Below are positions 1 through 54,580 of a DNA stretch of 64,000 bases, piece by piece (within the stretch, counting starts at the first letter, position 1; the number at the start of each line of letters is the position of its first letter). Origin of the DNA: an uncultured Gammaproteobacteria bacterium (GTDB lineage Bacteria > Patescibacteriota > Microgenomatia > JAMCZE01); NCBI GenBank assembly GCA_964641255.1, contig CAZXMM010000001.1:246973-310972 (forward strand). The letters run 5' to 3'. The position numbers and the translations under genes are program-made. A model generated the notes under the pieces. It did not search any database and was not told the DNA's origin. It saw nothing but the letters and a program-made list of their open reading frames with translations.

Positions 1-1266
1 AAGTGTTGGGTTTGTTTGCCACGCGTCTCGCAGTTGAGTTTTATTAGTTCCTCCAGAATATTTTGGGAAATAGTCCCATTGCATAAATACTGTAGACAAA
101 ATATGAGTTCCGATACTGGCCAAAAAAAAGATAAAGAAAGTAAATTTGAAGAGTTGGTTTTTAGAAAACCGAATATACACAATTGACAGATATATTATAA
201 AAATTGGCAACGCTTCCAAAAGGTAGCGAGCCTCTAAAGAAGTCCCCCCTACCCAGTAGTGCCAAGTGCTAGCCAGAAGAATAAACAGTCCAAGGGTGCT
301 AAGTAAACTCAAGCTTAGCTGCTTTTCGCTCGGTGAAATTTTGTCGCGAATAGTAAACATTAGTAAGGTTAACAGAAGGATTGGACTGAAAGTAAAAAGA
401 CCCACATTAGGGCTGATAAACAGAGAAATAAACGCCAAGAAAACGTGTGGCCCCAGTCTTTGGATAGATAGAATTATTTCCTCGTGATAACCAAATGGGA
501 TATCAAAAAACCTGAATGTGAGGAAAAAAGGAACATAAGTTAGTAATATTCCAATTGCAAAAAGGGTGGCTTTACTGGTAAAGTTTTTGGATTTTTTTGT
601 TTCTAAGTATAAGTAAATTAACCCAAATGCTCCGTAAAAAATATTGGTCATTCGTATTTGGGCCAATACTCCTAATACTAATCCGCTGATCAAAACCGAG
701 CGCTTGGTTTTTTCTTTGAGAAAAACCCAGAGGAAAAGATTAATAAAAAATACAGAAATGGCGTGTTGCCAATTTGCCTGAGCGGCTGTACTCAAAATAC
801 TTGTAGCGAAAAGATAAACACAGGTAAGGAGTGTGGAGATCGAGCGGCTTTTAGTGAGCTTTAAAATTGAGAAAAATAACAATACCCCAGAAAATGAAGC
901 ATAAAATGCTGCATTTATTTTTCCCACGTATTGAGAGTAATTACTAAAAACCATCGCGTTATCACTAATCTGGGCAACTCCAAAGTAAGCATTTAGGACA
1001 ACGAATAGGGGAACTGAAATGATACCCAAAAGTGGTGACATCTTGGAAAATGCCTGACCAGAGGAGTTGTAAACCAGAATCCCAGAAATGTGGCGCTCGT
1101 TTATGAAATCTCTAAGATTGGTTAAATCTAATCGTTGGTTAAAAATAAGATTGAGAGCGGTGAGATTGGTGGGATAAGAATCAACCGTATCGAAATAGCG
1201 AACCGAAAAGGTAAAGATAAAGAAGGACAAGAAAAATAGGCAACAGGAAATAAGAAAGTTTTTCAT
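1..1266 (-). CDS. Partial polytopic membrane protein, candidate GT-C (ArnT/PMT-like) glycosyltransferase; C-terminus lies beyond window start
   Basis: Minus-strand frame is open from the ATG at 1264-1266 (MKNFLISCCLFFLSFFIFTFSV...) to position 1 with no stop; many hydrophobic segments; absent from the ORF track presumably because it is edge-truncated. Confidence 0.5.
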   Translation of the reverse strand, partial: MKNFLISCCLFFLSFFIFTFSVRYFDTVDSYPTNLTALNLIFNQRLDLTNLRDFINERHISGILVYNSSGQAFSKMSPLLGIISVPLFVVLNAYFGVAQISDNAMVFSNYSQYVGKINAAFYASFSGVLLFFSILKLTKSRSISTLLTCVYLFATSILSTAAQANWQHAISVFFINLFLWVFLKEKTKRSVLISGLVLGVLAQIRMTNIFYGAFGLIYLYLETKKSKNFTSKATLFAIGILLTYVPFFLTFRFFDIPFGYHEEIILSIQRLGPHVFLAFISLFISPNVGLFTFSPILLLTLLMFTIRDKISPSEKQLSLSLLSTLGLFILLASTWHYWVGGTSLEARYLLEALPIFIIYLSIVYIRFSKNQLFKFTFFIFFLASIGTHILSTVFMQWDYFPKYSGGTNKTQLRDAWQTNPTL

Positions 1267-2102
1267 CAGTTGCTAAAATTATCCAGTTTAAAAAGTAATT
1301 TGGTGAACAAGCTTTGGTGCCAAATAAAACCCGGCGGATAATTGATCTCTTTTCCTCCCCACCTTAATTTAAATTCCGTAAATCCTTTCCAGTCTTTTCT
1401 AAGCCTTGGATACCGTTCATCATAAACTCCCTCAAAGTCAAGAAATGTGTACCCATTTTTCTTGAGAACTTTTATTGCGTCGCCCAGACACTGATATGCT
1501 GCCCACTTCTTTCTCCCCTCGGGTGTCGAGAAAGCATAAAAGTAGTGCGCGGTCTTTTTAAAGCCAGTAATCAAAATTCCTGAGACGATACGGTCTTTAT
1601 CATAAGTGAGGAAAATAAAGCTATCGTTACCAAAGGCACTATAAAGGCCACGTATGTCATTGCCCAGTGGCGCCCAAAACTTTCTAGTCCTCGCGTTTTG
1701 TTCCCAATACTGAATAAAAGTTTCAATATCACTTGAGACTGCAGTGCGAAGATTGTATTTCCTTGCCCTTTGAACACTAGTGGGGATGTGCGGCTTTTTA
1801 AGATCTAGAATGAGTGTCTTTGTGGGCAGAAGCGGCCACAGATCGGCAGACCATGGGAGAGCAATACTTTTAGCATTATTTGCTAAGTCTGGTTCGAGTT
1901 TCACAAACAAGGCACGATACTTTTTTGCCATCGCTCTAACACTCTTTTGATCAAGGCTGCTACAGCGTTGTACTTTTATGACACTAAGAAAAGAAAGCAG
2001 GGGGAGTGGTTTAATAAAAACATTAGTAGATCCGATCCTTTCCACCTTCCAACCGATTTGTTCCATGAATTTTGCATACTGTGGAGATTGGCGAATGTCC
2101 AT
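1266..2102 (-). CDS. FemAB-family (FemX-like) aminoacyl-tRNA-dependent peptidoglycan peptidyltransferase, paralog 1
   Basis: 278 aa; shares the FemAB-family pattern (QIGW..., LEPD, KARYNLR, HYFYAFSTPEG...FLDFEGV) by comparison with FemX from memory; sits directly tandem to a second paralog. Confidence 0.65.
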   Translation of the reverse strand: MDIRQSPQYAKFMEQIGWKVERIGSTNVFIKPLPLLSFLSVIKVQRCSSLDQKSVRAMAKKYRALFVKLEPDLANNAKSIALPWSADLWPLLPTKTLILDLKKPHIPTSVQRARKYNLRTAVSSDIETFIQYWEQNARTRKFWAPLGNDIRGLYSAFGNDSFIFLTYDKDRIVSGILITGFKKTAHYFYAFSTPEGRKKWAAYQCLGDAIKVLKKNGYTFLDFEGVYDERYPRLRKDWKGFTEFKLRWGGKEINYPPGFIWHQSLFTKLLFKLDNFSN

Positions 2103-2103
2103 T

Positions 2104-3168
2104 TTAGATATGAATCATTCTCTTAAGTTTAAGAAGCTGCCAACGAAGAGCGTTGCCCATGACAAATAGAGGATAGAGTGGGGAAAGAGGGATATCAATA
2201 GTTACGGGATAGTGAATTTCTTCTCCGCCAAAGCCCTGTTTCACACGGTAGACTCCCCACCACGGGTCACTTTCACTGGGGGTTTCTTTATAGCTACTCC
2301 AGAGATCAAATATTTCACAATCTAGTTTTTTCCCCAGCCTCATGGTTGCAAAATAGAGCAGTTGTGGTGCCATATAAGACCTAAAGGACATATCAAAGCC
2401 GGCGTAGGCATAATAAATAGTGTTTTTGAATTTCAGTAGCATGGCTCCGGCAATTGGCTTGTCTTTGTTTTCCGGGATGTAGGCATTTAATAAATACACT
2501 TGATGAGCAGGACGCAGTGTGTCCCAAAGCGTGGTGTAATAGTTTCTTGAGTGGGCATAGAATCCTTGCCGAGCCTCAGAAGCTTCTAAAAGAATAACAA
2601 ACTTTTCGACTGCTTCTTTTGAGCTCTCCTCCTTAACGATGACCCCTTTTTTAGTAGCTAGTCTGACGTTATAGCGAGTTTTTTCGTGCATTTGTTTAAG
2701 GAGTTCTTCCTCGCTCTTAGTTAAATCAATGACGATTGTATGGCGAGGTAATAACGGAATTACCTCTTGTGCGCCGGGCAGGGTTAGGGGGTTTGTTTTA
2801 GTAAAGTCGGGTTCAATTTGTAAAAAAAGCGCCCTCTCGGCTTTACATACCGCAACAATTTCTCGCAGCTCCCCAGGAGTAGGAAGCGGACTCCTGGGAA
2901 GATACGCAATCGTAAAACTAACTTTGGGGAGTTTGTGAATAGTGATTTGGAAAGCACGTTTACTATTTCCCATCCGGATGACTTTTTTGACGGAGGGAGT
3001 TTTACTGCGAAACTCTCCCCACTGCCACGATTGAGTAATGTGGTGAGACAGAGTGTTGTAATGGTCTTTGTTTTCAAGATGGGAAAGCGTAGGTGTAACT
3101 TTTGGCATACCTATATTATATATGTTTACAAAGACGAGTTTGTGAAATGGACGTTTTTTAAAAACCAA
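2104..3168 (-). CDS. FemAB-family (FemX-like) peptidyltransferase, paralog 2
   Basis: 354 aa; QWGEF, LQIEPDF, TRYNVRLATKKG, YYAYAGFD...FDLWS motifs parallel the paralog 1 and FemX pattern. Confidence 0.65.
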   Translation of the reverse strand: MVFKKRPFHKLVFVNIYNIGMPKVTPTLSHLENKDHYNTLSHHITQSWQWGEFRSKTPSVKKVIRMGNSKRAFQITIHKLPKVSFTIAYLPRSPLPTPGELREIVAVCKAERALFLQIEPDFTKTNPLTLPGAQEVIPLLPRHTIVIDLTKSEEELLKQMHEKTRYNVRLATKKGVIVKEESSKEAVEKFVILLEASEARQGFYAHSRNYYTTLWDTLRPAHQVYLLNAYIPENKDKPIAGAMLLKFKNTIYYAYAGFDMSFRSYMAPQLLYFATMRLGKKLDCEIFDLWSSYKETPSESDPWWGVYRVKQGFGGEEIHYPVTIDIPLSPLYPLFVMGNALRWQLLKLKRMIHI

Positions 3169-3228
3169 AGCTAATTTGCGTGAAAGGATGATTGCAGGGC
3201 CAAAGCAGTTGTGCTAGTCTGATAGGTA

Positions 3229-5571
3229 ATGAGCCTGCAGGATCTTGTGTCATCCGTTGCGGGAAAGTTTACTGCCCAGAAAAACACAGGCCGTGGCTAT
3301 TTAGCAGTTAAAATTTCCTCAACTTCAGTTTTATCAACGACATGGTCGGTGGCAGCTGGTGATGTTAAACTGGGGGCAGTAGCTTATGCTGCTCTAACCG
3401 ATGGTTCCTTTGAAAACCTTCTCCAAACGAGCGACAAAGCTGTCTCTGAATCCCTCTCTAATTCTAGTGTCGAAATTAGTCAGGTCGTGTTTGCGGTGCC
3501 TTTTCACTGGATTAGTGAAGGGAAAATTAGCTCAGTAAAGCTCAAGGATCTTAGGGCAATTTGTAAAGAGCTTGATCTTGTCCCCCTTGGGTATGTTTCT
3601 CTAACCGAGGCACTAGAGAGCTACTATAAAGAAGTAGAAGGGGCGCCGTTAACTGCTATTCTCGTAGGTATTGAGGGGCAAAATTCAACGCTGACAATTT
3701 ACCGAGCGGGTAAGCATTTGGGTACACATTTTTTGGGACTCACTGATTACCACGAGGATGTCTTACCGGAAGGCATTGAACGGGCTCTTAAAAAACTAAA
3801 TGTGGGAGATATTCTTCCCTCTCGGATCATTCTTTATGATGGAAAATCGGATCTAACAGCGGCTGTGGCAAAGGTAACTGCCTATCCTTGGACAGCTAAA
3901 CTACCGTTTCTACATTTTCCTAAGGTAGAAACGGCCTCAGCAGAATTTGTAGTTAAAGCTGTGGCTGTAGCAGGTGCCATGCAGCAGGGGGGAAGGTTTG
4001 TAGCTTTTGATCGAGATGGGGAATCGACTGTTGTTGATGTCCCTGTGGTTTCTGACACACCCCCTGTGGCCGCCAGTGCCTTTGAATCAGTAGAAGTTCC
4101 CTCCTTAAAACAAGTGCTTAAAGAACAGGAAGATGAACTGCTGGAAGTGTCTCCGGAGGAAGCGGGGTTTATGTCAGGTAGCGATCTTAATAATGTTATT
4201 GTTTCAGTCGCTTCACCGACTCCTCTGGCGACGACCTCTAGTTTTACTGAGTTTGCCCCACCGACCCCGAGTCCTAAGATTGCTGGGGAATATACAGCTA
4301 GTAATCATAAAGGAGGATTAAATCTTATGACGAGCTTGAGTGGACTTACCAAAAAAATACCATCATTCTCATTTAAAAAGAAAGCTCTCGACTCCGGAGC
4401 ACGAACGACGCCAGAGATTGGTGGTATCTCTAAGGGTAGAAAGTTCCCCCTCATTGCTTTCCCTATTATTTTTGTTGTGCTGCTCATCGGAGCTACCGGA
4501 GCTCTTGCATACTTTGTACCAAAAGCGGAAATTTTTGTCACTGTGGCGACCGAAAGCTTCTCTCATGATCTTGATGTTACAGTAGTTACGGATCGCGATT
4601 CTACATCTTCTGGCCAGATTCTATTGGGTAGTTACGTGACTACCAGCGAGGTCGGTAGTCGAAGAGCAGTAGCGACGGGAAACAAGCTGGTCGGTGATAG
4701 AGCTAAAGGCACTGTTACGATCTATAATTCAGCGTCGGCTCGGACTTTTCCGGCAGGAACAGTCCTGACGGGCAACGGTTTAAAATTTACTACTGATACC
4801 GAAGTAAGTGTAGCTTCCAGTTCTGGCATTGCTGACCAGATTACGGTGAAAGTGGGGGTGACCGCTGCTGATATTGGCGAAAAATACAATCTTCCCCCAG
4901 GAGTAACGTTCTCGGTTGGTTCCTTACCAACGAGTTCTTATCAAGGGAAAAATGAAGCGGCGTTAGCTGGGGGAAATAGTCACCAGGCAACTGTAGTTAC
5001 TAAAGGGGATCAGGATAGACTTCTTACTACCCTTTCGGGGGAACTGACGGAGCAAGCGCAAAAAGCTCTGGAAGCGAAGCTAGGGGCTAGCGATACCCTT
5101 CTTCCCAAAGCTATTACATCAGCGACAATCAAGAAGAAATTCACTCATGATATTGATGCCGAAGCAGATACCTTTGGTCTTGATTTGACTCTCGACTTTA
5201 AAGGGGTAACCTTTGCTAAGGACGATCTAGTCGAGCTCTTTAAACAAAATTTTCAATCAGCTATTGCAGAAGGGTTTGAACTCTCGAGCGACTCTGTCCA
5301 GTTTGAAGTCAAAGAAGCAAAAACTGACAAAGCCGGGAATATTGTTCTTAAGGTGCATCTTGATGGACAAATTGTCCCCAAGATCGCGGTTGAGCAAATT
5401 GTGACTGATTCTGCAGGAAAAAGCCTGGGCCAGGCAACTAGCTCCATTGCCAAGCTTCCTGGAGTAACTGGAGTTAGAGTAGAAATCAATCCTAAGATCG
5501 CCTCCCCCCTCGCCACTTTTGCGCTTCCCTGGAATAAAAAACACATTTCGGTAGATATTGTCAGAGAATAA
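3229..5571 (+). CDS. Hypothetical 780-aa membrane protein: N-terminal degenerate actin-like (PilM/FtsA-like) domain, central TM helix, large extracytoplasmic C-terminal domain
   Basis: N-terminal ~250 aa has phosphate-1/phosphate-2-like motifs of the actin/Hsp70 fold (YLAVKISSTSV...; AILVGIEGQNSTLTI); TM segment FPLIAFPIIFVVLLIGATGALAYFV around residue 420; Thr/Ser/Val-rich C-terminus; no LPXTG. Confidence 0.4.
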   Translation: MSLQDLVSSVAGKFTAQKNTGRGYLAVKISSTSVLSTTWSVAAGDVKLGAVAYAALTDGSFENLLQTSDKAVSESLSNSSVEISQVVFAVPFHWISEGKISSVKLKDLRAICKELDLVPLGYVSLTEALESYYKEVEGAPLTAILVGIEGQNSTLTIYRAGKHLGTHFLGLTDYHEDVLPEGIERALKKLNVGDILPSRIILYDGKSDLTAAVAKVTAYPWTAKLPFLHFPKVETASAEFVVKAVAVAGAMQQGGRFVAFDRDGESTVVDVPVVSDTPPVAASAFESVEVPSLKQVLKEQEDELLEVSPEEAGFMSGSDLNNVIVSVASPTPLATTSSFTEFAPPTPSPKIAGEYTASNHKGGLNLMTSLSGLTKKIPSFSFKKKALDSGARTTPEIGGISKGRKFPLIAFPIIFVVLLIGATGALAYFVPKAEIFVTVATESFSHDLDVTVVTDRDSTSSGQILLGSYVTTSEVGSRRAVATGNKLVGDRAKGTVTIYNSASARTFPAGTVLTGNGLKFTTDTEVSVASSSGIADQITVKVGVTAADIGEKYNLPPGVTFSVGSLPTSSYQGKNEAALAGGNSHQATVVTKGDQDRLLTTLSGELTEQAQKALEAKLGASDTLLPKAITSATIKKKFTHDIDAEADTFGLDLTLDFKGVTFAKDDLVELFKQNFQSAIAEGFELSSDSVQFEVKEAKTDKAGNIVLKVHLDGQIVPKIAVEQIVTDSAGKSLGQATSSIAKLPGVTGVRVEINPKIASPLATFALPWNKKHISVDIVRE

Positions 5572-5572
5572 T

Positions 5573-6343
5573 ATGGCGCTCTATGTTTATGTTAAGGGCC
5601 AACCCGGCAAATTTAAATTAAAGGCTCCCAAGAGAGTCTCGGCTCGTTCGCGCAAAGTCATGCGTCTTATTTCAGGAACCTGTTTAACACTAGGGCTTCT
5701 TATTGTGGCCCAGGTTGTTTATCCTATTGTGGGTTGGTATCTCTTTGTAGTTCCAAGTGTTGGTTCGGGAATCACTTCGCCTTTGGCGACTACTTTTAGG
5801 CCAGAAACCTCTCCACTTTTCCCAACTTTAGTACGGGCATCAGAGACTCTAGCTGGCGAAACCAATGCGACTCTTTATCAGCCCTCAAGTTGGTTTGTGG
5901 GGACTAAGGTGGTTAAAGCGGTTAATACGTCTCTTAAAGATTACACACTCAGTATTCCCAGGCTAAAGATTAAAGATGCCCATGTGGTAAATGGGGGTGA
6001 AGATCTAAAAAAGAATCTTATCGCTTGGCCAACCTCAGTTATTCCTGGAGCTTACGGTAGCATTATCATCTTTGGTCATTCTTCTCTTCCCCAGCTTAGC
6101 AATCCCGCTAGTTACTCCAGTATGTTTACTCATTTAATGTCTCTTGAAGAAGATGACGAGATTATAGTCAATTATGATGGGCTAACTTATATCTATCGAG
6201 TTGTAGACAAAAAGATCGTAAGTCCTACGGATTTATCCGTACTGGAACAACGTTTTGACGCGCCCTATATTGAACTGATTACGTGCGAACCTCCTGGGAC
6301 TGTTTGGATGAGAGGTGTAGTAAGAGCCCGACTTGTAGACTAA
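5573..6343 (+). CDS. Sortase (transpeptidase)
   Basis: N-terminal TM anchor; catalytic His context IIIFGHSS; TLxTC-type Cys motif ELITCEP; conserved Arg downstream. ATG at 5573 preferred over the TTG at 5558 to avoid overlapping the upstream stop at 5569-5571. Confidence 0.75.
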   Translation: MALYVYVKGQPGKFKLKAPKRVSARSRKVMRLISGTCLTLGLLIVAQVVYPIVGWYLFVVPSVGSGITSPLATTFRPETSPLFPTLVRASETLAGETNATLYQPSSWFVGTKVVKAVNTSLKDYTLSIPRLKIKDAHVVNGGEDLKKNLIAWPTSVIPGAYGSIIIFGHSSLPQLSNPASYSSMFTHLMSLEEDDEIIVNYDGLTYIYRVVDKKIVSPTDLSVLEQRFDAPYIELITCEPPGTVWMRGVVRARLVD

Positions 6344-6715: not shown

Positions 6716-6901
6716 ATGGCAATTTTTAAACAAGTTATTTCCCCTTTGCAGGCCTGGTTACTTTCCCAAGGGAAATGTGTGGGGTGTGGTATGTCTCTGT
6801 CCAAGGGGATAAAATCAGAAAACAAAGTAACCTGTAAATGTGGTCGAATTTATATTGCCGAGGGACAGTCGTTCAGACGGGCTAGGTTTGAGGAGGTATG
6901 A
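6716..6901 (+). CDS. Small zinc-ribbon protein (CxxC...CxC), hypothetical
   Basis: 61 aa with CVGCG...CKCG; 4-nt ATGA overlap with mltG suggests translational coupling. Confidence 0.4.
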   Translation: MAIFKQVISPLQAWLLSQGKCVGCGMSLSKGIKSENKVTCKCGRIYIAEGQSFRRARFEEV

Positions 6902-7896: not shown

Positions 7897-9357
7897 ATGA
7901 CTGTTTTTAGGTGCAAAAAACTTGGAAGTTTACTTATTCTGGTTTTAATTATTCTCCTTGGGGCTATCCTTAGACTTTACCGCCTTCCGGAACTGTCAAC
8001 ATTTCGGAGCGATCAGGTAATTGAGCTCACTAGTACTGCAGATATTCTACGGGGTGATTTCACCCTGATTGGGATTAAAACCTCCAACTCAGAAGTAAGA
8101 AATGGAGCAGTGATGTACTACCTGATGGCCCCATTTCTTTTAGCCATGAAGTTTAGCCCACTTGCGGGAGCTCTGGTTCAGATACTGTTGTCGCTGGGAA
8201 CTATCGTCCTAGTGTATGCCACTGCCAAAAAGTTCTTCGTTTCTCATCTTGCTCTCCTTGCCGCTTTTTCCATTGCTACTTCATCACTTCTTGTCCAGTT
8301 TTCAAGGCAAACACTTCTTGCTTATTATCCCTTATTTTTTAGCGCGCTTTTTTTGTGTTTTGCGTTAAAGGTCATTAAAAAAAGCAGTTTACTGACGGTT
8401 GGAATCTTGGGGACACTTTGTGGATTCTCATTACAAGTCCACTATGCCACCCTGGCTCTTTTTGTTTGTGCACTGTTCCTTCCTGCTTTGTTTAAAGCAG
8501 AAAGCCTTAAAGAAACTTTTATCTATTGGGGGAGTCTATTTTTGGGCCTTTTCTTAGGACTAGCACCGATGCTTTTATTTGAAATTCGCAATGAGTTTTT
8601 TAATTCCAAGATGCTGTGGAACTATGTGACTGAATCAGGAGGGGGTCACGAGGGGTTTAACCTGCTTAACTATCTCGTTAATTCTCTGGCTCAATACTTC
8701 TTTGGGGGCTCAGTGATTCTTACCTGTGTTGCAATTATAGTTTTAGTCTATACATTAATGAGGGTACGAAAGAGCTTGGGAACGTTAGAAAAACTTTGTC
8801 TACTTCAGCTCGGCTGTGTTTTCCTTTTTATTATCTTTCTGGTTCACGAAGATATCCCGCACTATCTATTACCAGCCGTCCCCAGTTTGGTGCTCCTAAC
8901 TGGGAGAATATTAGCCAAAACTAAAAATCCCATGCTAAGTAAATTTCTCGCCGTTGGTCTCGCTGTGGTATTTTTTCTTATTAATATTCCTCACTACCGT
9001 TTAGCCGACAGTCACGGCTGGACTATGGCTGAGGGGTGGAATCTAGTAGGAGTGGAGAAAGCGGCAAGAATTATTGCTAGTGATCTTACCGGCGACCCAT
9101 TTAATGTGGCCATGATTGTTGATCAAGAAAATCAAGGACTGCCCCTGCGCTATTTTTTGCACGTTTGGGGGTATAGTCCTCTTCCCGTTGAGTCCTATGA
9201 CAAGGCGCATTATCTTTATGTTCTTGCTGAGCCGGGGACAGTTCTTTCCCAGGTTACGATGTGGGAAGTAACTGCCTTTGGGTCGTATGAAGTGAGTAAA
9301 AGTTGGCCCATTCAAAACGGCTTTATCCTTTATAAACTTGAAAAAGCAGATGACTAG
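7897..9357 (+). CDS. Polytopic membrane protein, GT-C family (ArnT/PMT-like) glycosyltransferase candidate
   Basis: 486 aa, more than 10 predicted TM helices; LRLYRL motif after the first TM helix is typical of GT39/GT83 enzymes. Confidence 0.5.
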   Translation: MTVFRCKKLGSLLILVLIILLGAILRLYRLPELSTFRSDQVIELTSTADILRGDFTLIGIKTSNSEVRNGAVMYYLMAPFLLAMKFSPLAGALVQILLSLGTIVLVYATAKKFFVSHLALLAAFSIATSSLLVQFSRQTLLAYYPLFFSALFLCFALKVIKKSSLLTVGILGTLCGFSLQVHYATLALFVCALFLPALFKAESLKETFIYWGSLFLGLFLGLAPMLLFEIRNEFFNSKMLWNYVTESGGGHEGFNLLNYLVNSLAQYFFGGSVILTCVAIIVLVYTLMRVRKSLGTLEKLCLLQLGCVFLFIIFLVHEDIPHYLLPAVPSLVLLTGRILAKTKNPMLSKFLAVGLAVVFFLINIPHYRLADSHGWTMAEGWNLVGVEKAARIIASDLTGDPFNVAMIVDQENQGLPLRYFLHVWGYSPLPVESYDKAHYLYVLAEPGTVLSQVTMWEVTAFGSYEVSKSWPIQNGFILYKLEKADD

Positions 9358-51659: not shown

Positions 51660-52541
51660 ATGCGCATTCTTGGGAAAAAAATCGCTTTGGTTTTTAGTGT
51701 GGTTTTATTACTTATCTTGAGTGTTTTTGTTGTCAAACTTTCATTTTTTGATAAAGAGCCAACACTAGCGGCGATACAGGTTGACTCGTTCCCCAGGGCT
51801 GAAGTTCTCATAAACGGCCGTAAAGTAGGGACTACCCCGTACACTCAAGAAAAAATGACGGTGGGAGAATATCATGTTCGGTTAATTCCCATTGGCAGCG
51901 GTGGGACTTTTTACATCTGGGAAGGAAAAGTACCACTGTTTGGCGGGGGACTTACTTACATCAGTCGTGATTTAGGCAGCACTCCTAGTAACGGTGCTGG
52001 TCAAATGCTTTACCAGCGGCGGGGAGTAAACTCTTCGACGGGCGAACTAATCGTGGTCTCTACTCCGGATGGGGCACAGGTGGCGGTTGATGGGATAGTC
52101 AAAGGTAAAGCTTCAACGATAATTAAAAACCTTGACCGAGGCAATCACGACATCACTATCACGTTGACCGGTTTTGCCGACCAGATAGTGCCAGCTAAGA
52201 TCGAGCCCGGTTACCGCTTACATGTTTTTGTTGATCTGGCCCCCCTCCAGCTTGATTTTTTAGCTGCTGACGGTTCAGCCTCAGCTAGGCCTACAGCTGA
52301 TTTGCTTGACCCGTCTATTGCTACCTCTGGTGGTCTAGTTAAACCGTACGTAGTAATACTGGATACCCCACTGGGATTTCTTAGGCTTCGAAAGGACCCC
52401 TTCATCACTAGTCCGGAAATTGGCCAGGTGCTTCCCAAGGAACAGTTTCCACTTTTAAATGAGGAGTCTGGTTGGGTAAGGATTAAGCGGGCGAGTGATT
52501 CTGGTTGGGTGAGTGATCAATATGTAGAAGTGATCAAGTAG
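51660..52541 (+). CDS. Membrane-anchored PEGA-domain protein with C-terminal SH3b-like domain
   Basis: N-terminal TM; two PEGA-like repeats (VLINGRKVGTTPY; VAVDGIVKGKAST); C-terminal GWVRIKRASDSGWV. Confidence 0.55.
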   Translation: MRILGKKIALVFSVVLLLILSVFVVKLSFFDKEPTLAAIQVDSFPRAEVLINGRKVGTTPYTQEKMTVGEYHVRLIPIGSGGTFYIWEGKVPLFGGGLTYISRDLGSTPSNGAGQMLYQRRGVNSSTGELIVVSTPDGAQVAVDGIVKGKASTIIKNLDRGNHDITITLTGFADQIVPAKIEPGYRLHVFVDLAPLQLDFLAADGSASARPTADLLDPSIATSGGLVKPYVVILDTPLGFLRLRKDPFITSPEIGQVLPKEQFPLLNEESGWVRIKRASDSGWVSDQYVEVIK

Positions 52542-52568: not shown

Positions 52569-53519
52569 CTACTTTCCAATCACGTACACAATGAGAAACA
52601 GAGCCACACCCAAGACCAACGCGGTAATGACTAGGGGTCTATCACTCAGGAGTACTTTCTCGGGAGACTCGCCCTCATTTTTCTCATAGATCAGTTGCAG
52701 GTAACGCATAATGCCGTAAATGACTATAGGAATTGTAAGCATCAGCCATTTACGTTCCTGAAAAAGATAGAGGGTACTTTCATCAAAGAGTAGATCGCCG
52801 ATAGTTTTTCTCAGAACTGGAGGTTGTTGCAGGAAACTGTAAAAAGCGTAAGTTAACCAAGTAGAATTAGCAAACATCGAGATATAGACGTCTAGCATTT
52901 TTTCACTATAGTGATTAAGAGTAGTTCGCGTTTTTGAAGGGATAGCTCCGTGCCAACCAGAGAGGAGAGTTAATTCCGAGCGGCGTTTGCCAATGGCAAT
53001 GAAAAGTGCTCCGGAAATGACGGTGTAGAACAGCCAGATATCGATATGATAGCCAGTGGCCACTTCTCCCGCGAAGACTCTCAGCAGAAATCCGGCGGCA
53101 ATAGCAAAAATATCTAAGAGAATGATATTTTTGAGATAGAAGGAATAAGAGACCTGGAGGGCAAAATAAACAAGGACAATGATCACAAACGATGACGAAA
53201 CTAATGTTCCCAAAAAAAGGGCCAGTGCAGTCAGAATAACGGTAGCTAAAATTCCGGTCCGGCGGGATAGTTTCCCTGACGCTAGTGGCCGATTTTTTTT
53301 AAAGGGATGGAGTCGGTCCTTATCAATATCAGCCAGGTCGTTAACAATGTAAATTGCTGATGAAGTGGCACAAAAGGAAAGGAAGGCCAAGATAGTACTT
53401 CCCAGGAGAGTAAGATCAAGGAGTTGGCCGCTGAAAAAAATTGCCGCGAAAACTGCCCCATTCTTTATCCATTGCCGCGGTCTAATTTCTTTAAAAAGGT
53501 AGAAGAGTGTTTGAGCCAT
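52569..53519 (-). CDS. UbiA-family prenyltransferase (decaprenyl-phosphate phosphoribosyltransferase-like)
   Basis: NDLADIDKDRLHP Asp-rich motif; 8-9 TM segments. Confidence 0.7.
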   Translation of the reverse strand: MAQTLFYLFKEIRPRQWIKNGAVFAAIFFSGQLLDLTLLGSTILAFLSFCATSSAIYIVNDLADIDKDRLHPFKKNRPLASGKLSRRTGILATVILTALALFLGTLVSSSFVIIVLVYFALQVSYSFYLKNIILLDIFAIAAGFLLRVFAGEVATGYHIDIWLFYTVISGALFIAIGKRRSELTLLSGWHGAIPSKTRTTLNHYSEKMLDVYISMFANSTWLTYAFYSFLQQPPVLRKTIGDLLFDESTLYLFQERKWLMLTIPIVIYGIMRYLQLIYEKNEGESPEKVLLSDRPLVITALVLGVALFLIVYVIGK

Positions 53520-54580
53520 AATATCAGGGCGACCACCGCGACCGCAACGACAACAATGGCAAAGAATTTTTGCGTTGCGTTCACCGAGAGTGCGATCACT
53601 GCTAATATAGCAGATACTCCCCAGTAGAACAAGGCAATATGAGCTTTACTGACTCCAACTGCCAATAGTCGGTGATGGAGAAAACTTCTTGTCCCTAGGG
53701 TAGGATTCTTACCTTGGAGAATTTGCCCGAGTTTAACGTAGAGCGAATCAACGATAGGTATACCAAGGACCAAGATTGCCGTGCCAATTTTGGCAGTGGA
53801 TAATATGGCTAGGGTTGCCAGTAAATAACCGGCTAAGGACTTGCCTCCATAGCCAGGCATGATTTTTTGGGGAAAAAAGTTCCAGGGCATAAAGCCGAAA
53901 TAGATTCCCGCAGTGATGAAGGCTAAAGTTGTACCGGTCCAAGCAGGAAAGTTGGCGATAGAGATTTGGGTAAAGGAGAGGAGCCCAATGGTAAAGGCGG
54001 CTATAGTGACGAACCCAGGTAGTTGGCCGTCAACTCCCCCACTCCAGCCGACCATGTTCATGGTCCAGCTGATCCAGAGAATAGCTATTAAGTCAGCAAT
54101 CGGTAAAATGCTGTGTTCTCCCATAAAGACAAAAGTCCACCGGATACTATCGAGATGGATAACTCCACCGGTTAGGGGATTAGTGATAAACGGTATCCCA
54201 GCCCCTCCAGCTACTGCGAGGCTAGCGGCAATGATATTGGTGGCTAGTCGAAGATAGGGGTGGACATCGTGGTAGTCATCAATTAATCCAACAATAGCCA
54301 GAATAAGGGCCCCGAGCAAAATTCCCGCCAGTTCCTTAGTAATGGGAATAAAAATTAAACAGGTGACAACTAGCCCGGAGATAAGTGCCAATCCTCCCGC
54401 TCGAGGAACAACCCGAGTTTCTGTGTGTGCTGGATGGGGTCTAATGGCTGGGTCGTCGACGAGTCGGAAATACTTGGCGATTTCGATAACCGCCGGTAGT
54501 GTTATGGTGGTGATTAGTGCAGCTACTACAAAAGGTATCAAAGCTATGTTGCGAAAAATTGGGAAAATTAGCTCAAACAT
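53465..54580 (-). CDS. Polyprenyl-phosphate N-acetylhexosamine-1-phosphate transferase (MraY/WecA family, GT4)
   Basis: Multi-TM; VGLIDDYHDV motif; 371 aa; 55-nt overlap with the downstream UbiA-like gene. Confidence 0.7.
   Translation of the reverse strand: MFELIFPIFRNIALIPFVVAALITTITLPAVIEIAKYFRLVDDPAIRPHPAHTETRVVPRAGGLALISGLVVTCLIFIPITKELAGILLGALILAIVGLIDDYHDVHPYLRLATNIIAASLAVAGGAGIPFITNPLTGGVIHLDSIRWTFVFMGEHSILPIADLIAILWISWTMNMVGWSGGVDGQLPGFVTIAAFTIGLLSFTQISIANFPAWTGTTLAFITAGIYFGFMPWNFFPQKIMPGYGGKSLAGYLLATLAILSTAKIGTAILVLGIPIVDSLYVKLGQILQGKNPTLGTRSFLHHRLLAVGVSKAHIALFYWGVSAILAVIALSVNATQKFFAIVVVAVAVVALILWLKHSSTFLKKLDRGNG

Follow-up and report, generated by a model that had tools for sequence, protein, structure and literature searches.

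A tandem pair of FemABX-family paralogs, one long and one short, in a Microgenomates genome

Staphylococcus aureus FemX, FemA and FemB and Streptococcus pneumoniae MurM and MurN are sequential builders of lipid II branches and are partly encoded in operons. Weissella viridescens FemX (FemX_Wv), a UDP-MurNAc-pentapeptide:L-Ala transferase of about 335 amino acids (PDB 1NE9, 4II9), has two GNAT domains and no coiled-coil insertion. Its Lys305 acts in a substrate-assisted mechanism, the equivalents in DhpH-C being Phe328-Lys329 (PMC12945691), and its substrate site includes Lys36, Arg211, Tyr215, Tyr254 and Tyr256 (PMC8280954). We analyzed a 64,000-nucleotide stretch of DNA, referred to here as the window (positions 246,973 to 310,972 of the forward strand of contig CAZXMM010000001.1, GenBank assembly GCA_964641255.1), from an uncultured bacterium of the GTDB lineage Patescibacteriota; Microgenomatia. 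Two adjoining minus-strand genes near one end of the window, which we call Fem-L and Fem-S, encode paralogous members of the FemABX family. The reading we favor, with a probability of roughly 0.55, is that Fem-L is a FemX/MurM-like initiator and Fem-S a MurN/FemA-like second enzyme in the building of a peptidoglycan side chain. We favor it because the best matches of the pair are peptidoglycan Fem enzymes, because the order and coupling of the two genes are conserved, and because the substrate pocket of Fem-S appears altered. The pair consists of the following genes.

2104..3108, minus strand: Fem-L, a 334-residue predicted aminoacyl-tRNA-dependent transferase of the FemABX family (evidence: PF02388, PDB sequence match, AlphaFold2 (AF2) model with Foldseek, and K290)
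1266-2102, minus strand: Fem-S, a 278-residue diverged FemABX paralog with a shortened N-terminal domain (evidence: BLASTP, family profile, hhalign, AF2/Foldseek)

The two adjoining open reading frames (ORFs) lie where the first-pass annotation of this DNA, a reading by a model that ran no database searches, had placed them. In the ORF list the longest version of Fem-L spans 2104-3168 and begins with TTG. A database protein identical to the window's Fem-L (P0001) has 334 residues and an ATG start at 3108, and homologs are 315-337 residues long; we therefore take 2104-3108 as the gene and the ATG at 3108 as its likely start.

Fem-L matched the Pfam FemAB model PF02388 at 109.8 bits, well past the cut-off of 24, and its best PDB sequence match was S. 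aureus FemX (6snr, 8.7e-15). The AF2 model, with a mean predicted local distance difference test score (pLDDT) of 94.7, matched 6snr at 1.4e-21 in a Foldseek search of the PDB and superposed on FemX_Wv with a TM score of 0.74 and a root-mean-square deviation of 3.1-3.5 Å. FemX_Wv, S. aureus FemX and FemA were the top peptidoglycan matches of both the Fem-L and the Fem-S models, in an order that ran from the two FemX proteins through the natural-product enzymes Sbb17 and Sba18 to FemA and then the synthase domains of MprF. Both models have the double-GNAT architecture of the family, with two tandem GNAT-like domains. The coiled-coil arm, an antiparallel helical insertion of about 60 residues in domain 2, was found in neither the models nor the alignments of Fem-L and Fem-S, which excludes the coiled-coil Fem subclass. 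In this both proteins differ from the S. aureus Fem enzymes and MurM, which carry the arm (residues 235-297 in S. aureus FemX; PMC8280954), and resemble FemX_Wv, with which they share just 14-18% identity. Homologs of the pair are annotated at source as lipid II:glycine glycyltransferase or as FemA/FemB-family peptidoglycan bridge formation protein. Assignment to the PEP-CTERM/exosortase-associated FemAB proteins (TIGR03019) was rejected: the two proteins scored 49.4 and 23.5 bits against a cut-off of 260, and the locus holds no exosortase gene.

Fem-S is harder to recognize. The window copy alone scored 22.0 bits with PF02388, 2 bits under the cut-off, and passed PF13480 narrowly (23.6 bits, cut-off 22), and a PDB sequence search with Fem-S alone returned no match. 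BLASTP aligned it with Fem-L across the full length at 25% identity (E 1e-19). At the level of the family, PF02388 was matched by all 41 Fem-S homologs at E<=1e-3 (best 2.7e-24), a Fem-S family profile matched S. aureus FemX (1.3e-13), W. viridescens FemX (7e-13) and FemA (3e-9), and an hhalign comparison of the Fem-L and Fem-S families gave a probability of 100% and an E-value of 3e-49 over 274 columns. The AF2 model of Fem-S (pLDDT 92.6) had FemX as its best Foldseek match, with a TM score of about 0.70 to the W. viridescens protein and an N-terminal domain some 50 residues shorter. On the strength of the family profile, the PF02388 matches of its homologs, hhalign and the predicted fold, Fem-S is a true member of the FemAB family, and the same profile, hhalign and fold evidence led us to reject a chance match or a GNAT protein outside the Fem family. 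The proposal of the first-pass annotation that both genes are FemAB-family paralogs is thus borne out by Pfam, profiles, hhalign and AF2/Foldseek; the PF02388 search and the alignment of the two paralogs that it suggested as checks bore this out directly for Fem-L and for the relation between the two, and the family of Fem-S had to be shown by the other routes. A precomputed Pfam domain was missing from both the window Fem-S and its closest homolog, hence annotation pipelines can miss the short Fem-S subfamily, which is under-recognized.

We then compared the residues of the catalytic and substrate sites. Near the C-terminus Fem-L has the motif 'YRVKQGFGG', in which K290 (V-K) was invariant in 24 Fem-L sequences, and Fem-S has 'TEFKLRWGG', in which F244-K245 was invariant in 41 Fem-S sequences. 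These motifs align with 'RFKLGFGGE' of Sbb17 and 'FKKVWG' of S. aureus FemX; their register to residue 305 of FemX_Wv was extrapolated, as the printed alignments end at residue 298. In sequence, then, both proteins have the Lys that follows an aromatic or hydrophobic residue in FemABX enzymes. The FemX_Wv substrate-site residues were located from printed alignments with register counting. Tyr254 and Tyr256 are retained as Y233/Y235 in Fem-L and Y187/Y189 in Fem-S, and the position of Lys36 is basic in both by sequence register (K42 in Fem-L, R22 in Fem-S). A basic helix, '(K/R)YN(I/L)R.A', is also present in both. Tyr215 is retained in Fem-L and replaced by Asp/Glu in Fem-S, where the position of Arg211 is occupied by Pro. 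These two replacements fit a different acceptor for Fem-S, for example one that is already branched, and its acceptor pocket is predicted to be shaped differently from that of Fem-L. Both proteins look catalytically competent. The possibility that Fem-S is a dead enzyme was rejected, given the conservation of F244-K245 and of the Tyr pair.

The two genes are closely packed. The stop codon of Fem-L and the start codon of Fem-S are separated by a single nucleotide ('TAA A ATG'), and this order recurs in relatives. Named homologs of the Fem proteins came from Microgenomates-group bacteria of the Candidate Phyla Radiation (CPR), namely Levy-, Gottesman-, Collier-, Shapiro-, Roizman-, Woese- and Chisholmbacteria, with a few from metagenome-assembled genomes (MAGs) of Chloroflexota and spirochaetes. 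We examined five close relatives, with Fem-L 47-59% identical to that of the window, and 80 distant species-representative Microgenomates loci, with Fem-L at <=39% identity and 1.35 Mb in total, and called Fem types by scoring every Fem ORF against hidden Markov models (HMMs) of both families. The gene directly downstream of Fem-L was of the Fem-S type in four of the five close relatives; in the fifth (L087) it encodes 255 amino acids and fell under the Fem-S profile threshold of 1e-5. By type, 62 loci had Fem-L alone, 22 had Fem-L followed by Fem-S, and three, labeled Chloroflexota or Saccharibacteria, had two L-type copies. Wherever both types occurred (22/22), Fem-S shared the strand of Fem-L and came after it, in most cases with the two genes abutting or overlapping; among the distant species loci this arrangement was found in 16 of 80.

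Fem-S was monophyletic in 50 of 50 neighbor-joining bootstraps (21 non-redundant S-type sequences, Poisson distances), with a mean distance of 1.18 within the S-type compared to 0.86 within the L-type. This monophyly, combined with the constant position after Fem-L, indicates that Fem-S is one old paralogous lineage carried by a minority of Microgenomates. Fem-L is the universal copy in Microgenomates, and Fem-S is the faster-evolving and more divergent of the two. In the distant loci Fem-L usually lies on the same strand as, and directly 3' of, a gene for a UvrD/PcrA-like helicase of about 620 residues. Genes resembling LytR-CpsA-Psr and triose-phosphate isomerase (the latter label judged from the sequence, with no Pfam scan) occur 2-3 kb upstream of Fem-L in 40 of the 80 loci (L002-L081), and GT-C-like membrane protein genes also occur further upstream. 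In Fem-S-bearing loci, as on the window's contig, a gene for an AddA-like helicase (a helicase-nuclease of about 970 residues) converges from downstream.

Taken with the residues described above, this arrangement suggests a two-step pathway. Fem-L and Fem-S, FemABX-family proteins of the FemX_Wv-type double-GNAT form without the coiled-coil arm, would act in the cytoplasm as non-ribosomal peptidyl transferases. We infer that each uses an aminoacyl-tRNA as donor and attaches the amino acid to a free amino group of a peptidoglycan precursor, either UDP-MurNAc-pentapeptide or lipid II, and that the substrate-assisted catalysis relies on the Lys conserved in the (F/V)-K-x-G-(F/W)-G-G motif. Like FemX or MurM, Fem-L, the likely first-step enzyme, would begin the side chain at the diamino acid in position 3 of the stem, which may be Lys, Orn or a DAP isomer. 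Fem-S, like MurN or FemA, would add a further residue, and the stem peptide branched by the two enzymes would allow indirect cross-linking. The S. aureus Fem proteins and S. pneumoniae MurMN offer the precedent of adjacent paralogous genes whose products act successively, which the L-then-S pair would match. That the two enzymes add successive or different residues had been suggested in the first-pass annotation, and it is a reasonable model that fits the conserved order and the translational coupling of the genes.

Several results weigh against this pathway. The position of FemX_Wv Arg211 is an invariant His across the Fem-L family, and the NCBIfam equivalog models of characterized Fem enzymes scored far under their cut-offs (33 against 500 for the FemX_Wv type, 49 against 260 for the PEP-CTERM FemAB). 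The Foldseek scores to Sbb17 and Sba18 nearly equal those to FemX. Only Fem-L was found in 61 of the 80 distant species loci, and the second enzyme is therefore dispensable in most relatives. No Mur ligase gene was found in the window or in the first 87 related loci; the search was made in order to type MurE, in which the DNPR motif marks specificity for meso-DAP. Literature searches on Fem, MurE type and cross-bridges in CPR returned no paper on Fem paralogs or wall chemotype, and because no report of that chemistry was found, the wall chemistry of CPR/Patescibacteria appears to have been deduced from genes.

The patchy occurrence of Fem-S also bears on a different assignment, in which it acts in parallel with Fem-L, either on the same acceptor position with a different amino acid or as a non-catalytic partner of Fem-L. 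Such a role would resemble that of the immunity or variant Fem paralogs of staphylococci and streptococci, which alter bridge composition, and Fem-like immunity factors are known (bioRxiv 10.1101/2024.09.27.615381). It would be in keeping with the faster evolution of Fem-S (the mean distances given above) and with its presence in only about a quarter of loci, as expected of an accessory modifier. However, the conserved F-K motif and Tyr pair speak against an inactive partner, no murein-hydrolase or bacteriocin gene adjoins Fem-S on the window's contig or in the five close relatives, and the residues at its acceptor site are not the same as in Fem-L, which favors distinct acceptors over a shared one. 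We regard parallel action as rather unlikely.

The acceptor itself could lie outside peptidoglycan, and the gene downstream of Fem-S is relevant here.

1..1266, minus strand: Mem476, a polytopic membrane protein and probable GT-C-like glycosyltransferase module (codons 1-422 of 476, the gene being cut by the window's left end)

The full Mem476 gene (476 amino acids) is found on L001:11843-13273 and is followed by a gene for a 145-residue protein. Its start overlaps the stop of Fem-S (TGATG), and a sequence scan found no terminator-like site between Fem-L, Fem-S and Mem476. From these junctions Fem-L, Fem-S and, in this genome, the GT-C-like Mem476 are read as one translationally coupled unit with the order L then S. 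Mem476 had no Pfam match, even at a permissive threshold. Only eight homologs were found among 5.8 billion proteins, of which four are fused to GT2 (PF00535), and its remote matches were to PMT/PMT_2 and to PMT-type mannosyltransferases. It was missing downstream of Fem-S in the five close relatives and the distant loci and is thus not a conserved partner; it is probably a rare, lineage-specific GT-C-like module for envelope glycosylation. GT-C-like membrane neighbors had been noted in the first-pass annotation. This holds for a PMT_2 gene at 7897-9357 (30.1 bits against a cut-off of 26.1), the sole Pfam-supported GT-C-like gene of the locus context, but the gene directly downstream of the pair (1-1266) lacks a Pfam match and has remote PMT-like relatives only.

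If one or both Fem enzymes aminoacylated a membrane lipid or glycolipid, a wall glycopolymer or a small metabolite, they would resemble the MprF-type aminoacyl-phosphatidylglycerol synthases or the tRNA-dependent natural-product enzymes (Sbb17/Sba18, PacB, VlmA). Sbb17 and Sba18 (PDB 9WQW-9WQY), streptothricin-type aminoacyl-tRNA-dependent peptide synthases, have the same fold, a similar size and a near-identical C-terminal motif ('RFKLGFGGE..HYP'), and were matched in Foldseek at E 1e-13 to 1e-18. The C-terminal aminoacyl-phosphatidylglycerol synthase domain of MprF is likewise aminoacyl-tRNA dependent and shares the double-GNAT fold (1e-9 to 1e-11). The coupling of Fem-S to a GT-C-like membrane protein in this genome and the loss of FemX_Wv Arg211 point in the same direction. 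Against this, the best sequence and structure matches were always peptidoglycan Fem enzymes, and the Fem family is near-universal and single-copy-like in a lineage with peptidoglycan genes. Sbb17 and Sba18 are encoded in actinomycete antibiotic clusters, whereas the Fem genes of the window have housekeeping and envelope genes as neighbors in a 0.95-Mb CPR genome (the window's proteins lie on a 950,062-bp contig), with no biosynthetic gene cluster context. The similarity to MprF is weaker (TM 0.5-0.6), the window proteins have no fused flippase, and Mem476, which stands beside Fem in no relative, did not match the MprF membrane domain. A non-peptidoglycan acceptor therefore seems improbable to us. 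The specific form of a split MprF-like system made up of Fem-S and Mem476 was rejected, as there was no match to the MprF transmembrane domain, the relatives of Mem476 are linked to PMT and GT2, and its pairing with Fem is not conserved.

On the other side of Fem-L, the genome encodes a sortase and a second membrane protein on the opposite strand.

3109..3228, no strand: the intergenic spacer from which Fem-L and the P780-sortase operon diverge (120 bp, with TATAAT 6 nt upstream of the Fem-L ATG)
3229..5571, plus strand: P780, a 780-residue single-pass membrane protein with a weak Baseplate_J-like ectodomain (PF04865, 27.5 bits), the divergent neighbor of Fem-L
5573..6343, plus strand: sortase with an N-terminal membrane anchor (PF04203, 78.1 bits; TIGR01076, 41.2 bits against a cut-off of 39.35)

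The sortase residues H169, C238 and R247, the His-Cys-Arg triad, were invariant in the window sequence and five relatives, and judged by these residues the sortase is genuine. Models of sortase classes A-F all scored far under their cut-offs, and no defined class fits. P780 lies upstream of the sortase, its stop codon overlaps the sortase ORF, and the two genes are kept together in the five close relatives. Its cytoplasmic N-terminal domain is strongly conserved and unannotated, with invariant LPSRI..YDG and PWT..LPFLHFPKVE motifs, and is joined to an acidic variable linker; P780 had no PDB match and may be a CPR-specific partner of the sortase. We rejected P780 as a sortase substrate because its 'KLPGVTG' is not conserved and is followed by no C-terminal membrane anchor.

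A functional link between the Fem pair and the sortase, with the Fem branch supplying the amino group for sortase anchoring and co-regulation from the shared 120-bp intergenic region, would have a precedent in S. aureus, where the amine of the cross-bridge is the sortase nucleophile. The sortase triad is intact, and the divergent arrangement of P780-sortase and Fem-L-Fem-S was kept in all five close relatives, which have the layout rpoB <- ... <- YceG <- RuvX <- sortase <- P780 | -> Fem-L with a second gene directly downstream. However, these relatives also keep the order of the flanking housekeeping genes (rpoB, YceG and RuvX, with RmuC, MetRS and TatD further downstream), and the layout therefore reflects general synteny. 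In the 80 distant Microgenomates loci, where the upstream neighbor is the UvrD/PcrA-like helicase, searches by tblastn and with profile HMMs built from the proteins of the clade found no sortase or P780 gene in the 10 kb around Fem-L; the clade of the window alone has a sortase in the vicinity of Fem-L. A permissive LPXTG-like regular expression for C-terminal sorting signals, applied to ORFs of >=80 aa in the window and six related loci, gave no candidate, its sole match being one spurious antisense ORF, although the window is about 7% of the genome and this negative says little of the genome as a whole. In the loci examined we thus found neither adjacency beyond synteny nor LPXTG-type substrates. 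A consensus promoter scan of the region around 3109..3228 found 15 sites where 10.3 +/- 3.4 were expected, and the promoter/terminator scan did not rise above shuffled expectation, so any promoter there is putative.

The sortase that the first-pass annotation saw near the Fem genes is thus real, but it lies 2.4 kb from Fem-L on the opposite strand, behind the 780-residue gene. Given the divergent transcription and the restriction to one clade amid general synteny, the adjacency carries little functional weight; the position of Fem beside the sortase is a local accident of gene order, and joint function of the two is distinctly unlikely. More speculative still, and in our judgment very improbable, is a clade-specific surface-assembly unit composed of the Fem pair, P780 and the sortase, together with the GT-C-like protein in this genome, in which Fem-S acts beyond the canonical stem peptide. 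Its target may then be a glycolipid, a wall polymer or the anchor of the unclassified CPR sortase, and such a unit, if true, would represent a new substrate class for Fem enzymes.

Much of the setting has been described before. Nearly all Microgenomates have a sortase, and the envelope of CPR bacteria is regarded as Gram-positive-like (PMC6744442), so that the first-pass proposal of a Gram-positive-like envelope in this lineage agrees with current opinion but is not new. Complete peptidoglycan pathways have been reported in CPR organisms (PMC7143001), a Patescibacteria MAG study lists murA-G with femX in a passing mention (PMC12992704), and Fem annotations exist in related genomes. The tandem Fem pair is real but an ordinary feature. 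What is new is the recognition of Fem-S as a short, fast-evolving lineage whose genes always come after Fem-L, and the finding that the adjacency to sortase is clade-local. Fem-L and the old Fem-S predict a branched, indirectly cross-linked peptidoglycan, a testable and modest prediction for hosts that have genomes of <1 Mb and are unable to make most amino acids. The locus also advises caution in inferring function from adjacency in compact CPR genomes, as Fem-L mostly lies behind a helicase gene and faces a sortase operon in one lineage.

The remainder of the window is a housekeeping region that includes rpoB/C and the RecA gene. Between RuvX and YceG/MltG, a 61-residue ORF on the plus strand (6716-6901) has a zinc-ribbon-like CxxC...CxC pattern, and a gene of the same size occupies the same place in three related loci (L084, L086 and L087). 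A 293-residue protein with PEGA domains and a bacterial SH3 domain, encoded at 51660-52541 on the plus strand, is likely a wall-associated surface protein and has no recognizable sorting signal. Overlapping minus-strand ORFs at 52569-54580 encode a UbiA-family prenyltransferase and a GT4 (MraY/WecA-type) phosphosugar transferase; they adjoin genes for a 151-residue unknown protein and AlaRS and may belong to a polyprenyl-phosphate sugar carrier pathway. GC skew was positive in 29 of 32 2-kb bins (window 1-64000), and the cumulative skew climbed steadily over most of the window. Most window genes are on the plus strand, which, combined with the skew, is consistent with the leading strand of one replichore.

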